NCBI RefSeq assembly: GCF_965152275.1
Contig: NC_134246.1
Location: 34,404,151-34,468,150, forward strand
From: Natator depressus
Taxonomy: Eukaryota
DNA length: 64,000 nucleotides
Reading direction: 5' to 3'
The position numbers were made by a program, and so were the translations under genes. Under the pieces are notes generated by a model. The model did no database searches. It worked only from the letters and a program-made list of their open reading frames with translations, and was not told the origin of the DNA. Of this stretch, positions 21,471 through 57,760 are shown piece after piece (position 1 is the first letter of the stretch; every line of letters begins with the position of its first letter).

Positions 21471-21550
21471 TGCATCCTAAAGCCCATTTGCAAAAGGCCA
21501 ATCCGTGGGCTCATCCAGGATTTGAACCCAGGGCCTCTCACACCCGAAGC
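21471..21550 (-). pseudogene. tRNA-Pro(CGG)-derived pseudogene or SINE head
   Basis: The reverse complement reads GGCAGGGCTTGTTGGTCTAGGGGTATGATTCTTGCTTCGGGTGTGAGAGGCCCTGGGTTCAAATCCTGGATGAGCCCA. Compared with vertebrate tRNA-Pro-CGG as I recall it, six CG positions read TG, and one of them breaks the T-stem. Confidence 0.55.
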
Positions 21551-21619
21551 AAGAATCATACCCCTAGACCAACAAGCCCTGCCTAAAAAGGAGGTGCAGG
21601 TGCCTCACTAAGCTAGAAT

Positions 21620-40019: not shown

Positions 40020-40182
40020 CATGTGTTTACACAGCAGGGCCGATCCCCTCCAGCAGGGGGTGCAGGGGGACACACACACTCACTCACACATATATACACA
40101 CACAGCAGGGTTGATCACCTCCAACAGGGGTGCAGCCACACACACAGAGAGTAGGGCTGAATCCCTCCAGCAAGGGGCGCAA

Positions 40183-40225
<43 letters not shown>

Positions 40226-40400
40226 AGGGCCGATCCCCTCCAGCAGGGGTGCAGGGACACACACACACACCAGGGCAGATCCCCTCCAGCAGGGGTGCAG
40301 GGACACACACATACTCACTCACACATATATACACTCACAACAGGGCCGATCCCCTCCAGCAGGGGGCGCAAGGACACAGGGACACACACACACACTCATC
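40020..40400. repeat. ~60-bp minisatellite containing (CA)n tracts (cacacacagcagggccgatcccctccagcaggggtgcagggacacacaca) in PNP intron 1
   Basis: Seen in sequence. Its longest (CA) run, ~25 units, is at 40186-40235. Confidence 0.85.
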
Positions 40401-42479: not shown

Positions 42480-43265
42480 GGGAGACCCCCCCACCCAGTC
42501 CCCCAGCACCGGGGAGAGACCCCCATTTTAGCCCCCCATTCCCAGCGCCCAGGGGAGATCCCCTATTCTAGCCCCTCAGCGCCAGAGACACCACCCTTTC
42601 CACCCTCCAGCATCAGGGGAGACCCCCCATACTGCCCCACCATTCCCAGCCCCTCAGTGCCCAGAGGAGACCCCCCAATCCAGCCCCCCAGCATCGGGGG
42701 AGACCCCATAATTCTAGCCCCTCCCCATTCCCAGCATCCCGACGCCAGAGACACCCCGCAATCCAACCCCACTACTCCCAGCTGGCCGGCAGCAGACACC
42801 CCCCCAATCCAGCCCCCTACTCCCAGCCCCCCGGCGCCAGAGACACCCCCCTTTCCAGACCCCGTACTCCTATCCCCCCAGCACCAGAGATATCTCCATT
42901 CCAGCCCCCCAGCACCAGAGACACCCCCAATCCAGCCCCCCATTCCTAGCGCCCAGCACCAGAGACACCCCCAATCCAGCCCCCCATTCCTAGCCCCCAG
43001 CACCAGAGACACCCCCCAATCCAGGCCCCCTACCCCCAGTGCCAGAGACACCCCCCAATCCAGCCCCACTATTCCTAGCCCCCCAGCACCAGAGACACCC
43101 CCCAATCCAGCCCCCCAGTGCCAGAGACTCCCCCCATCCAGCCCCCCTACTCCCAGCCCCCCAGCGCCAGAGACACACCCCTTTCCTGCCCCCCTATTCC
43201 CAGCCCCCCAGCGCCAGAGACACCCCCTAATCCAGCCCCCCTATTCCCAGCCCCCCGGAGTCGAG
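42480..43265. repeat. ~50-bp minisatellite, ~15 units (ccagccccccagcaccagagacaccccccaatccagccccccattcc), between the divergent PNP and PIP4P1 promoters
   Basis: Seen in sequence. It is the source of the P-rich ORFs 42657..43271 and 42563..43105. Confidence 0.85.
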
Positions 43266-43739
43266 GAGTGACCAGACCTCCCGATTTTCGGGGCTTTCTC
43301 TTATACATGTAACTGTAACACCCGCCGCCCCCGATTGTTCACCCTCTCCCAGCGCTGGAGCGACCCCCCCGATCTCCAGCAGAACGCCCCCACATCCCAC
43401 TGGCGCCGGGGGGCTCGGGGGCGGGGCCACATGCTTCCCAGGCAGTAAACGGCGGGCTTTTACAGCGGGGTGGGGCCAAGCTGAGAGCTCGGGGGGTGGG
43501 GCCAGGGATGGCCCCTGCCCCCGGCGTGCTCAGTCCCGCCCCGTAGGCCGAGTTCCCCCTTCCCCCGACAAGGAGCCTGGAGATTGCGGAGGGCGGGGCT
43601 ATAAGGAGGGTCGTTGACAGGCAGTGGGAGGGGCCCTCGCTGGGAGTGGGTATGGCCAACGGGGTGAGGCCCGGCTCAACTGACATGGGAAACAGCCAAC
43701 GAGGCGCACTGCGCCTGGAAGGCGGGAGCGGAGCAGTTA

Positions 43740-44231
43740 ATGAGGGCGGGGCTTGGTGGGTCGGGCGAGTTCGACGGTAGCCAATGGGCGGGGGCCGGAG
43801 GGGTCGTGCGAGGGGTAGTTGCTGCTTCCAGCCAGTCAGGCGGCGTGAAAGCGCTGACGATACGACGGGCTGAGCGATTGGCCAATCAGAGTTTTCAACA
43901 TGTGGGACTGATCGCCAAGGTCCAGCCAGTAAGAGAAGCCACCGGGATCACGTGGGGGAAAGCACCGTTAGTCGAGCCATTCAGGGAGCCCATTTAGAGT
44001 CACATGAGAAGGGTGACGAATCCAGCCAATGGGTGGGGAGCATTAATGTCACGTGCTGGCAATTGGCCGCCGCCAGTCAATGAGAGAACGACTTGAGCTC
44101 ACGTGATGTTGGTGTCACATGACTGCTACCAGGTCTCCTCTTGGCCAATAGGCGGCCGTCTCCCTCTCACGTGACTCAGGACATCGCTGCGGGGAGCCGG
44201 GGACGGGCGCTACGGCAGCCGGGAAGCGACG
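43740..44231 (+). promoter_or_regulatory. PIP4P1/TMEM55B promoter region: CCAAT boxes, 4 CACGTG and 2 CACATG E-boxes, three of them TCACGTGA-type (CLEAR-like)
   Basis: ccaatggg at 43772 and 44027, gccaatca at 43881, ttggccaata at 44141. atcacgtggg at 43947, gtcacgtgct at 44049, ctcacgtgatg at 44099, ctcacgtgactc at 44167, agtcacatgag at 43999, gtcacatgac at 44116. Confidence 0.6.
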
Positions 44232-44394
44232 ATGTCGGGGGACGGCGAACGCTCCCCGTTGCTGCCCGCGGAGCTCGGCGAGCCGGGCACTCCCGGGGCG
44301 GGCGGGGTCCTGGCCGGGCCTGGCGGGCTCGTGCCCTCCGCGCCGCTCCCGCCCTACGGGGGTCCCGCCGCAGAGAAGCCGGCCCCGCCCCATG
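44232..44394 (+). CDS. PIP4P1: PIP4P1 (TMEM55B) exon 1 (MSGDGERSPLLPAELGEPGTPGAGGVLAGPGGLVPSAPLPPYGGPAAEKPAPPH-G)
   Basis: Matches the human TMEM55B N-terminus (MAADGERSPLL...SAPPYG). Donor CATG|gtgagcgg, phase 1. Confidence 0.8.
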
Positions 44395-55239: not shown

Positions 55240-55640
55240 CATTCCTGCTCCCCAGCCAATCACAAACCTTCTTGCATTATAGTCTCCCCAAACCCTGGCC
55301 AATTACAGAGCTCCTTGCACAATAAACCCCCTGCTCCCCGGCCAATCCCAATCGCAGTCCTCCTTGCACAATAAACACCCATCTCCCCTGCCAATTAACA
55401 CCCACCCCCCTGGCCAATCATAGCCCTCCTAGCATGATACACACCCACCCGCTCCCGGGCCAATCACAGAGCTCCTCGTACAATAAACTCCCTGTTCTCT
55501 GGCCAATAGCAGCCCTTCTTCCACACCAAACACCCACCCACTCCATAGACAATCACAGAGCTCCTGGCACAATAAACAACCAACCTCCCCGGCCAATAAA
55601 CACCCACCTCCCTGGCCAATCGCAGCCCTCCAGCGCAAGA
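55240..55640. repeat. ~60-bp tandem repeat, ~7 units, each carrying a GGCCAAT (CCAAT box) and CAATAAAC (ccccggccaataaacacccacctccctggccaatcacagagctcctggcacaataaac), inside APEX1 intron 1 and 400-800 bp upstream of the OSGEP start
   Basis: Seen in sequence. CCAAT boxes at ~55247, 55300, 55334, 55399, 55449, 55500, 55583, 55612. Confidence 0.8.
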
Positions 55641-55730: not shown

Positions 55731-56030
55731 CCGTAGGTTCCGAGGGGCACACGTGCGGGCGCGGTCACGTGCCGGGGAAAGGGCGGGGCTAGAGCGCTGC
55801 GCTGTCACGTGCTGGAGCCCTGGGGCTGCGGCGGACTGTGGGGAGCGGACGGCCGTGGGCGGGACTCCCGTGTCACGTGAGGCGGGAGCGGCCAGGAACT
55901 CCGGTGTCACGCGGGGCGGGAAGGAGAGTGGTCATCGCGCTCCGGTGTCACGTGGGGTGAGAGGGGCGGGGCTGCGTTGTGACTTAGCAGCGCGAGGACG
56001 CCGGGCTGCATGCGCCGCGCCGGACCCGCC
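55731..56030. promoter_or_regulatory. APEX1/OSGEP bidirectional promoter: array of 4 GTCACGTG E-boxes plus ACGTG and GTCACGCG variants at ~35-70-bp spacing, with GC boxes (GGGCGGGG)
   Basis: cacgtg at 55766, 55806, 55874 and 55949. acgtg at 55752. gtcacgcg at 55906. gggcgggg at 55781, 55857, 55913 and 55964. Confidence 0.6.
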
Positions 56031-56151
56031 ATGCCCGCGGTGACGGTGCTGGGGCTGGAAGGCAGCGCCAACAAGGTGGGGACGGGGCTGGTGCGGGACG
56101 GGCAGGTGCTGAGCAACCCCCGCCGGACCTTCGTGCCCGCGCCGGGCCAGG
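56031..56151 (+). CDS. OSGEP: OSGEP exon 1 ([41 protein letters not shown])
   Basis: Matches the human OSGEP N-terminus [39 protein letters not shown]. Donor CAGG|gtgagccgg. An in-frame upstream ATG at 56010 is less likely. Confidence 0.85.
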
Positions 56152-57760
56152 GTGAGCCGGGGCCTCCCCGTCCTTACCCGTCCCCCCCCCGGCCCCCCCT
56201 TTCCTTACCCATCCCCCCCCGCGCCCCTCCCCTGCCCCGGGCCCTCCCGTCCTTACGCATCCCCCCCCACGCGCCCCTCCCCCTCCCCGGGCCCCCCTGT
56301 CCTTACCCATCCCCCCCGTGTCCCTCCCCTGCCCCGGCCCCCCCCCCGTCCTTACCCATCCCCCCCCCGTGTCCCTCCCCTGCCCCGGCCCCCCCCCCGT
56401 CCTTACCCATCCCCCCCCCGTGTCCCTCCCCCACCCAGGGACCCAGCCCCCCCATCCTTACCCATCCCCCTCCCCCACCCTGGGACACCCCCCCCAGGCC
56501 TCCCCGTCCTTACCCCTCCCTCCCCTGGGACCCTTCCCTCCCCCGTCCCCGGGCCTCCCCGTCCTTTCCCATCTCCATCTTCCCTCCGTCTGCCCCCCAG
56601 GCCCCATACACATAGACAGACACACACACACACAGCCGGGCCTCCCTGTCCTTACCCATCTGCCCCCCATCCCTCCTGCGCCCCTACCCTGCTCTGGGAC
56701 CTTTCCCCCCCACAGGCCTCCCCATCCTTACCCATTCCCATCCTCCCTCTGTCTGCCCCCTATCCCCCCTGCGCCCCACCCCGAGACACTCCCCCCCCCT
56801 TCTCCCCGGGCCTCCCTGTCCTTAGCGGTCCTACCGTGCCCTGGGACACCCCCCGCCCCTCCGGGGCCTCCCCATCCTTACCCATTCCCCGTCCGCCCAC
56901 CAGCCCTGACACACACCCCCACACCCCGGGCCTCCATGTCCTTACCCATCCACCCCCCATCCCTCCTGTGCCCCTACCCTGCTCCGGGACACCCCCCCAC
57001 CCCCCACGGGCCTCCCCATCCTCCCTCCGTCTGCCCCCTATCCCCCCTGCGCCCCCACCCCGAGACACTCCCCGTTCTTACCGGTCCTACCCTGCCCTGG
57101 GACACACCCCCCCCCCCCGGGGCCTCCCCGTCCTTACCCATCCCCATCGCTCCTCTGTCCGCCCCACTGCTCCAATACACACGCACCCGGGCCTCCCCTA
57201 GGAGCTCCCCGTTGCGAGCCTCCCCAGAACCCCTGCTGGGACCCCCAGTCCTTTACCCATCCTCTCTCCGTCCGCCCCGCCCCAGGACCCCCAACCTCTC
57301 CCCTGATCCCCATCCCTCCTGCGCCCCCCCTGGGGCCTCCCCATCCCGGGCCTCCCCAGGACTTCCGCTGGGACCCCCCCCCCATCCTTACTCATTTCTT
57401 CCTCCATCCGCCTCCCCAGGACCCTGCCTGGGTCTCCCAATCCTGAGCCGCTCTGGGACTCTCGCTGGGACCCCCCCCATCCTTACCCATCCACCCACTG
57501 TCCACCCCGGGACCCCCCAACCTCCGCCCCGATCCCCATTCCCCCTGCGCCCCTACCCTGCCCTGGGACCCCCCACTGGCCTCCCCATCACGAGCCTCCC
57601 CGGGACCCCTGCTGGGACCCCCTTCATCCCCATCCCCATCCCCACCCCGCCTGGGCCTCCCCATCCCGAGCCTCTCAGGGACCCCCGCTAGGACCCCTCC
57701 CTTTCCTTACCCATCTTCCCACCGTCCACCCTCCTGCCCCGGGACCCCCCCCCCAACCTC
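56150..57760. repeat. 1.6-kb C-rich minisatellite (ccgtccttacccatcccccccccgtgtccctcccctgccccggccccccc, ~60-bp unit, ~25 units) filling most of OSGEP intron 1
   Basis: Seen in sequence. It is the source of the 457-aa and 349-aa proline-rich ORFs at 56318..57691 and 56152..57201 and of the G-rich ORFs on the minus strand. A C(21) run lies at 57960-57980. Confidence 0.9.

Follow-up and report, generated by a model that had tools for sequence, protein, structure and literature searches.

Among the systems with which the promoter described here can be compared are the CLEAR network, reportedly introduced by Sardiello et al. in 2009, and the stereo-positioned E-box-CCAAT composite of NF-Y and USF said to have been described by Fleming in 2013; the MiT/TFE factors, for their part, need a T that flanks the CAC[G/A]TG core. 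In the human TMEM55B (PIP4P1) gene, which has a lysosomal function, four CLEAR motifs have been listed, AACACGTGAC at -288, GTCACGTGCA at -193, GTCATGTGAC at -154 and ATCACGTGCT at -36 (Willett et al., 2017; PMC5691037), and induction of the gene has been found to be TFEB/TFE3-dependent, with TFE3 ChIP-seq signal at the gene, in mouse and human cells (PMC5691037), so that an earlier note on this DNA had rightly referred to TMEM55B as a published TFEB/TFE3 target. Equally, TMEM55B is upregulated upon sterol depletion or treatment with U18666A in a partly SREBF2-dependent manner, the effect of SREBF2 being smaller than that of its combined loss with TFEB/TFE3 (PMC5691037), and SREBPs have been shown to bind palindromic E-boxes, with NF-Y or Sp1 needed alongside (PMC3522477). 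Furthermore, the ChIP-seq peaks of USF2 centre on GTCACGTG, which equals the CLEAR core, and CLEAR motifs are sites of competition between USF2 and TFEB (PMC11436898), while stereo-positioning of NF-Y relative to USF/MAX E-boxes has been described at a distance of 10-12 bp (Dolfini, 2016; PMC4889920).

The window, that is, the whole 64-kb stretch of DNA from a cheloniid sea turtle that was analysed, contains PIP4P1/TMEM55B with its ATG at 44232 and seven exons encoding 284 aa, as derived from tblastn and a splice-site search. The predicted protein matches isoform X1 of Lepidochelys/Caretta at NCBI in full, belongs to PF09788 and is 80% identical to the rodent protein, by which both the identity of the gene and the non-mammalian nature of the sequence, as proposed previously, are borne out. 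As isoform X2 differs from X1 at the 3' end only, PIP4P1 is without an alternative first exon. The order of the genes, PNP, PIP4P1, APEX1 and OSGEP (Table 1), is that of the synteny at human 14q11. A bidirectional promoter common to PNP and PIP4P1, as hinted at by the annotation of the eagle, was considered and rejected, as the ATG of PNP is located 1.9 kb away from the ATG of PIP4P1 and the PNP start, although equipped with GC boxes, is devoid of an E-box; the E-box cluster is thus PIP4P1's own. A scan with Rfam, which covered the whole window, identified no RNA family in or near the promoter region.

Table 1. Sequence features of the turtle PIP4P1 promoter and neighbouring genes; scores are matches to the CLEAR consensus.
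Feature	Positions	Strand	Position relative to ATG	Remarks
PNP	exons 39980 down to 32759	-		ATG ~42319
Upstream CCAAT box (AGCCAATGGGCGGGG)	43781..43785	+	-451	
CCAGT	43832..43836	+		canonical CCAAT (AGCCAATCAGA) in 4 related assemblies
ATTGGCCAAT	43877..43886	+	-355 (ATTGG, 43877); -350 (CCAAT, 43882)	inverted and direct CCAAT boxes back-to-back
CATGTG	43899..43904	+		12 nt after CCAAT 43882; without T flank in the window
CCAGT, degenerate CCAAT-like pentamer	43926..43930	+		23 nt before E-box 1
E-box 1, TCACGTGG	43948..43955	+	-283	CACGTG core at 43949; 7/10
CCATT, degenerate CCAAT-like pentamer	43977..43981	+		24 nt before E-box 2
E-box 2, TCACATGA	44000..44007	+	-231	CACATG core at 44001; M-box-like; 8/10
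CCAAT box (AGCCAATGGG)	44026..44030	+	-206	24 nt before E-box 3
E-box 3, GTCACGTGCT	44049..44056	+	-182	CACGTG core at 44050; 8/10
Inverted CCAAT (ATTGG)	44062..44066	-	-170	6 nt after E-box 3
TCAAT, degenerate CCAAT-like pentamer	44077..44081	+		23 nt before E-box 4
E-box 4, TCACGTGA	44099..44106	+	-132	CACGTG core at 44100; 8/10
E-box 5, within GTCACATGAC	44115..44122	+	-116	CACATG core at 44116 (TCACATGA); 9/10
CCAAT box (GGCCAATAGG)	44145..44149	+	-87	23 nt before E-box 6
E-box 6, proximal, TCACGTGAC	44167..44174	+	-64	CACGTG core at 44168; 9/10
PIP4P1/TMEM55B coding exon 1 (MSGDGERSPLL...)	44232..44394	+		
APEX1	54725 to 51215	-		
OSGEP		+		ATG at 56031

Six T-flanked E-boxes, four TCACGTG and two TCACATGA, are found 64-283 bp upstream of the PIP4P1 ATG. 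On the + strand all six cores are preceded by the 5' T and four are also followed by a 3' A, the order of the sites with their flanks being TCACGTGG, TCACATGA, TCACGTGC, TCACGTGA, TCACATGA and TCACGTGA and the spacing from one E-box to the next 52, 49, 50, 16 and 52 bp; two of the six are of the TCATGTGA type. Rescoring against the CLEAR consensus GTCACGTGAC agrees with the 9/10 and 8/10 matches that had been given before for the sites at 44167 and 44099. The composition of the region does not account for this density: 20,000 dinucleotide-preserving shuffles of 43900-44231 yield an expectation of 0.12 for CACGTG and of 0.13 for T-flanked E-boxes, as compared to the four and six observed, numbers reached by none of the shuffles (0/20,000 in either case), and the cluster of four CACGTG and two CACATG upstream of the ATG, the central claim made for this promoter beforehand, accordingly stands. 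At least three T-flanked E-boxes per 300 bp occur at only two places of the window, the PIP4P1 promoter and 55766-55949. A TGACTCA motif at 44172-44178 overlaps E-box 6.

CCAAT boxes are likewise enriched, with six CCAAT/ATTGG in 43700-44231 compared to 0.89 expected (P = 1e-4, shuffles). Four CCAAT are indeed present on the + strand, the number announced by the earlier note, which, however, placed all of them within 300 bp of the ATG, where only two (-206 and -87) are located. When anchored on the E-box cores, a CCAAT-like pentamer starts 23-24 nt upstream (start to start) of five of the six E-boxes, which leaves a gap of 18-19 nt with the CCAAT upstream in each of these five main modules. 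The pentamers in register read CCAGT, CCATT, CCAAT, TCAAT and CCAAT, two of the five thus being canonical, and four further CCAAT/ATTGG are situated outside of the register. With offsets of 6-60 nt on both sides, both orientations and up to one mismatch allowed, not one of 5,000 shuffles placed five E-boxes in one register. A gap of 10-12 bp between E-box and CCAAT is seen in the turtle only in the CCAAT-N12-CATGTG at 43882-43904. As NF-Y has a very low tolerance for variants of CCAAT, decay of former sites is a likelier account of the three degenerate pentamers than present function, a reading with which it agrees that the CCAGT at 43832 and the ACATGTG at 43899 of the window are a canonical CCAAT and TCATGTG, respectively, in four related assemblies. 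A tandem-repeat origin of the turtle cluster was rejected as demonstrable, since TRF, run over 43600-44230 with a score as low as 30, reported no tandem repeat and the autocorrelation at lag 50, 0.315, remains inside the null and disappears once the motifs are masked; such an origin is true only for the eagle.

Among six cheloniid sequences, the window and five assemblies, the promoter is 97% identical without any indels, and the promoter stretch of the window is identical to that of assembly GCA_965152195.1. E-box 2 and E-box 4 are invariant in all six sequences, E-box 1 reads TCATGTGG with a CATGTG core in one assembly (L022), and E-box 3 has been lost through a change to TTACGTG in three of the five related assemblies (L021, L023 and L025), which shows individual sites to be dispensable. 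A count from the alignment gives variation at about 2 of 42 motif positions as compared to a background of about 5%, and footprinting of the six sequences thus detects no extra constraint at motif positions, in a comparison that is without power at such distance.

At larger distance, orthologous loci were retrieved via the annotated proteins and motifs were counted in the 600 bp that precede each ATG, where shuffles predict 0.02-0.21 T-flanked E-boxes over all species and 0.02-0.18 over the amniotes. T-flanked E-boxes and CCAAT/ATTGG number six and six in the turtle of the window, four and five in the rat as well as in Apodemus, four and six in the mole and in each of two lacertid lizards, and five and five in the eagle. 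Every sampled amniote hence possesses 4-6 E-boxes (P < 2e-4) and 5-6 CCAAT/ATTGG (P <= 0.0012), and the comparison of orthologous promoters that had been proposed previously speaks for retention of the E-boxes in rodents, mole, lizards and eagle. The frogs Pyxicephalus and Bombina have three (P = 0.0006) and two (P = 0.019) T-flanked E-boxes, respectively, next to one and zero CCAAT/ATTGG, which are not enriched. Near the annotated ATG, enrichment of E-boxes is absent in perch and gar (one E-box each, not significant; one CCAAT/ATTGG each, not enriched), in the whale shark (zero; two, not enriched) and in the stingray (zero and zero), species in which an unannotated non-coding first exon could hide the true promoter. 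The N-terminus of gar PIP4P1 looks atypical. The notion of an 'ancient' regulation can consequently be retained for amniotes and, with two to three sites, partly for frogs, and does not extend to perch, gar, whale shark and stingray near the annotated ATG; judged from these sequences, the E-box and CCAAT architecture appears to be as old as the amniotes and in part as old as the tetrapods, an older age not being demonstrable.

As the spacers of the multi-species promoters are unalignable by MAFFT and only few motif blocks anchor the alignment, orthologues were compared by the order and spacing of motifs. The mole carries all four human CLEAR decamers letter for letter, and rodents have GTCACGTGCA and GTCATGTGAC exactly together with variants of the other two decamers, at collinear positions. 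In the turtle, AGCCAATGG-N17-GTCACGTGCT can be aligned gap-free with the TTCCAATGG-N17-GTCACGTGCA of rat and mole at the -193 site, and the CCAATGG located 24 nt upstream of E-box 3 is part of a CCAATGG-N17-GTCACGTGC with a gapless match to this mammalian site; E-box 3 therefore probably corresponds to the CLEAR motif GTCACGTGCA at human -193. The reverse complement of E-box 5 equals the human -154 motif GTCATGTGAC, and the distance to the downstream CCAAT is 29 nt from GTCACATGAC in the turtle compared to 29 nt (rat) and 31 nt (mole) from GTCATGTGAC. The CACATG of the turtle and the CATGTG of mammals may both descend from an ancestral CACGTG in which deamination of the CpG affected one strand in the former case and the other strand in the latter. 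MAFFT pairs the proximal E-box 6 with its proximal equivalents in rodents and lizards, and the proximal site of the eagle is a perfect GTCACGTGAC. The 24-nt register of CCAAT and E-box, on the other hand, has a single instance in mammals (the -193 site) and a single exact one in lizards, which in addition show 26 and 31 nt, and the promoter of the eagle is a genuine array of tandem units with a period of ~92 bp (autocorrelation 0.466, >99th percentile of the null), in which the unit TCACGTG-N11-CCAAT is found four times. Taken together, the ingredients are conserved, whereas each lineage has rebuilt their arrangement. Downstream of the eagle gene, a 29-bp minisatellite with more than 20 T-flanked E-boxes was observed.

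In the rat, five RNA-seq contigs follow the genomic sequence collinearly in front of the ATG without a 5' intron and have their 5' ends at -83 to -146, the longest contig beginning 14 nt upstream of the core of the proximal E-box. Rodent transcription hence starts inside the cluster, and a transcription start far from this region, which had been named as an observation that would speak against a promoter function, is not what is seen in rodents. By homology with rodents, the start of turtle PIP4P1 would be expected inside the cluster as well.

The bidirectional promoter of APEX1/OSGEP in the same window provides an internal control. Within its 205 bp (55750-55954), five CACGTG are present compared to 0.22 expected, four of them as GTCACGTG, and many CCAAT boxes adjoin the E-boxes; the rodent promoter has three CACGTG and two ATTGG within 70 bp. 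The human APEX1/OSGEP promoter is a high-confidence USF2-NFYA target by ChIP-seq (PMC5223348), and a passage of PMC9181002 cites APE1 as a reported MITF target (Liu, 2009). This promoter resembles the PIP4P1 promoter in its equally dense CACGTG cluster near CCAAT boxes, and differs from it in that it serves non-lysosomal genes, in that blocks of CCAAT and E-boxes are separate rather than interleaved and in that CACATG is lacking. CLEAR-like E-boxes, even when densely clustered, consequently do not identify a promoter as lysosomal or as TFEB-specific. Nor does the sequence reveal TFEB specificity, the motif being common to USF1/2, SREBP and partly MYC/MAX, and clusters of GTCACGTG do not allow an assignment to TFEB by sequence alone. 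On the other hand, judged by the established flank preferences of bHLH-ZIP factors, the T next to each core and the pair of TCATGTGA-type sites agree with MiT/TFE and argue against MYC/MAX.

Considering these data, we regard it as the best explanation, with a probability of roughly 0.7, that the proximal promoter of turtle PIP4P1 is orthologous to the four-CLEAR promoter of human and mouse and constitutes a platform for bHLH-ZIP factors on which MiT/TFE would activate, USF would compete and SREBF2 might act, with support by NF-Y on the CCAAT boxes. For the turtle, the identity of the bound factors and the physiological outcome are inferred by homology with mammals. The six TCAC[G/A]TG E-boxes would be bound by bHLH-leucine-zipper dimers, with TFEB and TFE3 expected on the sites when mTORC1 is off; their occupancy would upregulate PIP4P1 and subsequently lead to JIP4/dynein-dependent clustering of lysosomes. 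The interleaved CCAAT boxes would be bound by NF-Y and provide basal activity and open chromatin. In fed cells, these E-boxes would be contested by USF2 (and MYC/MAX), and at low sterol SREBF2 could use them.

Alternatively, a constitutive housekeeping module, with dimers or tetramers of USF1/2 on the E-boxes and NF-Y on the CCAAT boxes, might drive basal transcription from the CpG island, the MiT/TFE input being minor or specific to mammals. That USF2 peaks centre on GTCACGTG (PMC11436898), that a similar cluster occurs in APEX1/OSGEP, a human USF2-NFYA target (PMC5223348), and that the 10-12 bp rule for NF-Y and USF (PMC4889920) is obeyed by the fourfold CACGTG-N11-CCAAT of the eagle and by CCAAT-N12-CATGTG of the turtle is in line with such a module; the five main turtle modules, however, deviate from this geometry with their gap of 18-19 nt and the CCAAT upstream, and three of their five pentamers are no canonical CCAAT. 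As a replacement of the platform proposed above this alternative seems unlikely, and it is compatible with it, as competition between USF2 and TFEB has been reported at the same sites. Considerably less probable is that the CCAAT-N18-TCAC modules represent sterol-response units of SREBF2 and NF-Y that couple PIP4P1 to the cholesterol status, although sterol depletion or U18666A raises TMEM55B partly via SREBF2 (PMC5691037), SREBPs on palindromic E-boxes depend on nearby NF-Y or Sp1 (PMC3522477) and every turtle site starts with TCAC preceded by a CCAAT-like element (in register at 5/6). A scan for the classical SRE (TCACNCCAC) found none in the cluster and no enrichment in the window, the sole match in the promoter region, with one mismatch, being located on the - strand at 43840-43848, some 100 bp before E-box 1; furthermore, a true CCAAT is present in only two of the five pentamers and the published effect of SREBF2 stays below that of its combined loss with TFEB/TFE3.

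The cluster could equally be a neutral, minisatellite-like by-product of local tandem duplication without selection on the sites, for which the ~92-bp array of the eagle, its downstream 29-bp minisatellite and the cheloniid sites that vary no less than the background could be brought forward. The motifs and the register of the turtle, however, persist without a repeat at the sequence level, neither by TRF nor at lag 50, and 4-6 E-boxes and 5-6 CCAAT have been kept in lineages with unalignable spacers, which makes a purely neutral origin extremely improbable. A further, speculative and rather doubtful suggestion is that the PIP4P1 promoter is a composite NF-Y/bHLH-ZIP unit re-amplified in each amniote lineage, in which the number and phasing of units might set the gain of a TFEB/USF switch, the factors assembling cooperatively along a single helical face. 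Its geometry differs between lineages, with five [CCAAT-like]-N18-19-TCAC(G/A)TG modules ~50 bp (approximately five helical turns) apart in the turtle and four to five tandem units of ~92 bp with E-box-N11-CCAAT in the eagle. If true, re-amplification would be a general route to tune the dosage of CLEAR genes by amplification of modules, not by turnover of single sites.

The multi-CLEAR architecture of TMEM55B/PIP4P1, known from human and mouse, is common to turtles, squamates and birds, with a reduced form in frogs, and the transcriptional link between nutrient or lysosomal stress and the positioning of lysosomes is accordingly probably at least as old as the amniotes. The register of CCAAT-like pentamers and E-boxes in the turtle and the tandem array of the eagle are new but minor details. 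These observations provide a helpful background to comparative studies of the CLEAR network and leave the current understanding unchanged.

Compared with the composite of NF-Y and USF, the turtle promoter shares the co-occurrence of E-box and CCAAT in a CpG-island promoter, the 10-12 bp distance being kept by the N11 of the eagle and by turtle 43882-43904, whereas the five main modules of the turtle are CCAAT-first, more widely spaced and in three cases degenerate. With SREBP/NF-Y promoters such as those of HMGCS, FDPS and DHCR24 (PMC3522477), it has a bHLH-ZIP site of the TCAC type beside a CCAAT and a gene reported to be sterol-responsive in common, while the turtle cluster is without the non-palindromic SRE of those promoters. 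The closest relative is the TMEM55B promoter of human and mouse, with which the gene, the synteny, several GTCACGTGAC-like E-boxes within ~300 bp and the 24-nt spacing from CCAAT to E-box at the -193 site are shared, as is the order of CCAAT, E (GTCACGTGC), E' (GTCA[TG/CA]TGAC), CCAAT and proximal E. The turtle differs from human and mouse by six instead of four sites, by two CACATG instead of one CATGTG, by an additional E-box, at 44100, that falls between the equivalents of sites -193 and -154, and by 23 nt instead of ~85 nt from the last CCAAT to the proximal E-box. As multimerised CLEAR sites have already been published for TMEM55B, the turtle promoter adds conservation to this known system rather than a new principle.

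Besides the E-boxes and CCAAT boxes of the turtle PIP4P1 promoter, the perfect AP-1/TRE heptamer TGACTCA, which overlaps the proximal E-box (TCACGTGACTCAGG), is unchanged across six cheloniid sequences and is missing from the corresponding site in lizards, the eagle and rodents. In L021, L023 and L025, three related cheloniid assemblies, the window sequence GTCACGTGC at 44049 (column 320 of A2, the alignment of cheloniid promoter sequences) reads GTTACGTGC, by which the E-box corresponding to the mammalian -193 CLEAR motif is lost and a HIF-site-like TACGTG core remains.

In the eagle, the PIP4P1 promoter consists of 4-5 tandem units of ~85-92 bp, every one of them containing TCACGTG-N11-CCAAT, and has a GC content of 0.78. 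Immediately downstream of the eagle gene, a ~29-bp minisatellite (GTCA[C/T]GTGACACGCCTGGGACACGCCTGC) harbours more than 20 T-flanked E-boxes, showing that E-box clusters can arise by repeat expansion. Equally at this locus, the annotated start of the PNP CDS, which precedes the PIP4P1 ATG by 585 bp and reads MAGRWAGRMRGG..., is without resemblance to PNP and is probably an artefact of gene prediction.

Further repeats occur in the turtle window, including a C-rich tandem repeat between the promoters of PNP and PIP4P1 and a very C-rich minisatellite at the start of OSGEP intron 1; the GC skew is strongly negative at 56-58 kb. The sole Rfam match in the window is to tRNA; it scores 37 bits against a gathering score of 29 and may represent either a tRNA gene or a repeat derived from one.

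Coordinates of features in the turtle window and at the eagle locus (L013)
Feature	Position	Strand	Repeat units
tRNA match (Rfam)	21507-21578	-	
PNP intron 1 (GT)n microsatellite	40030-40400	- (reading)	interspersed ~60 bp (CCCTGCACCCCTGCTGGAGGGGATCGGCCCTG)
C-rich tandem repeat	43003-43256		47 and 78 bp (CCAGAGACACCCCCCAATCCAGCCCC...)
AP-1/TRE heptamer	44172-44178		
CCAAT tandem array	55244-55620		~43 and 23 bp (GGCCAATCACAGAGCTCC...CAATAAAC)
APEX1/OSGEP E-box cluster	55750-55954		
SRE-1 core	55952-55960	-	
OSGEP intron 1 minisatellite	56177-56573		~51 and 98 bp (CCCCGTCCTTACCCATCCCCCCCC...)
Eagle annotated PNP start	L013 2415		
Eagle PIP4P1 promoter array	L013 2590-2950		
Eagle minisatellite	L013 9220-10140		

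A second dense cluster of E-boxes is found in the bidirectional APEX1/OSGEP promoter, with five CACGTG versus 0.22 expected, four of which are GTCACGTG, and one GTCACGCG in addition. The final E-box of the OSGEP promoter (GTCACGTGGGGTGA) is overlapped by an exact LDLR-type SRE-1 core, TCACCCCAC. Between APEX1 exon 1 and this cluster, a tandem array carries ten CCAAT boxes on the + strand. Three CACGTG and two ATTGG are retained in the rodent promoter, the human APEX1/OSGEP promoter is a USF2-NFYA target (PMC5223348), and APE1 is a reported MITF target (Liu 2009, cited in PMC9181002). At APEX1/OSGEP, E-boxes and CCAAT boxes lie in separate blocks, in which this promoter differs from that of PIP4P1.
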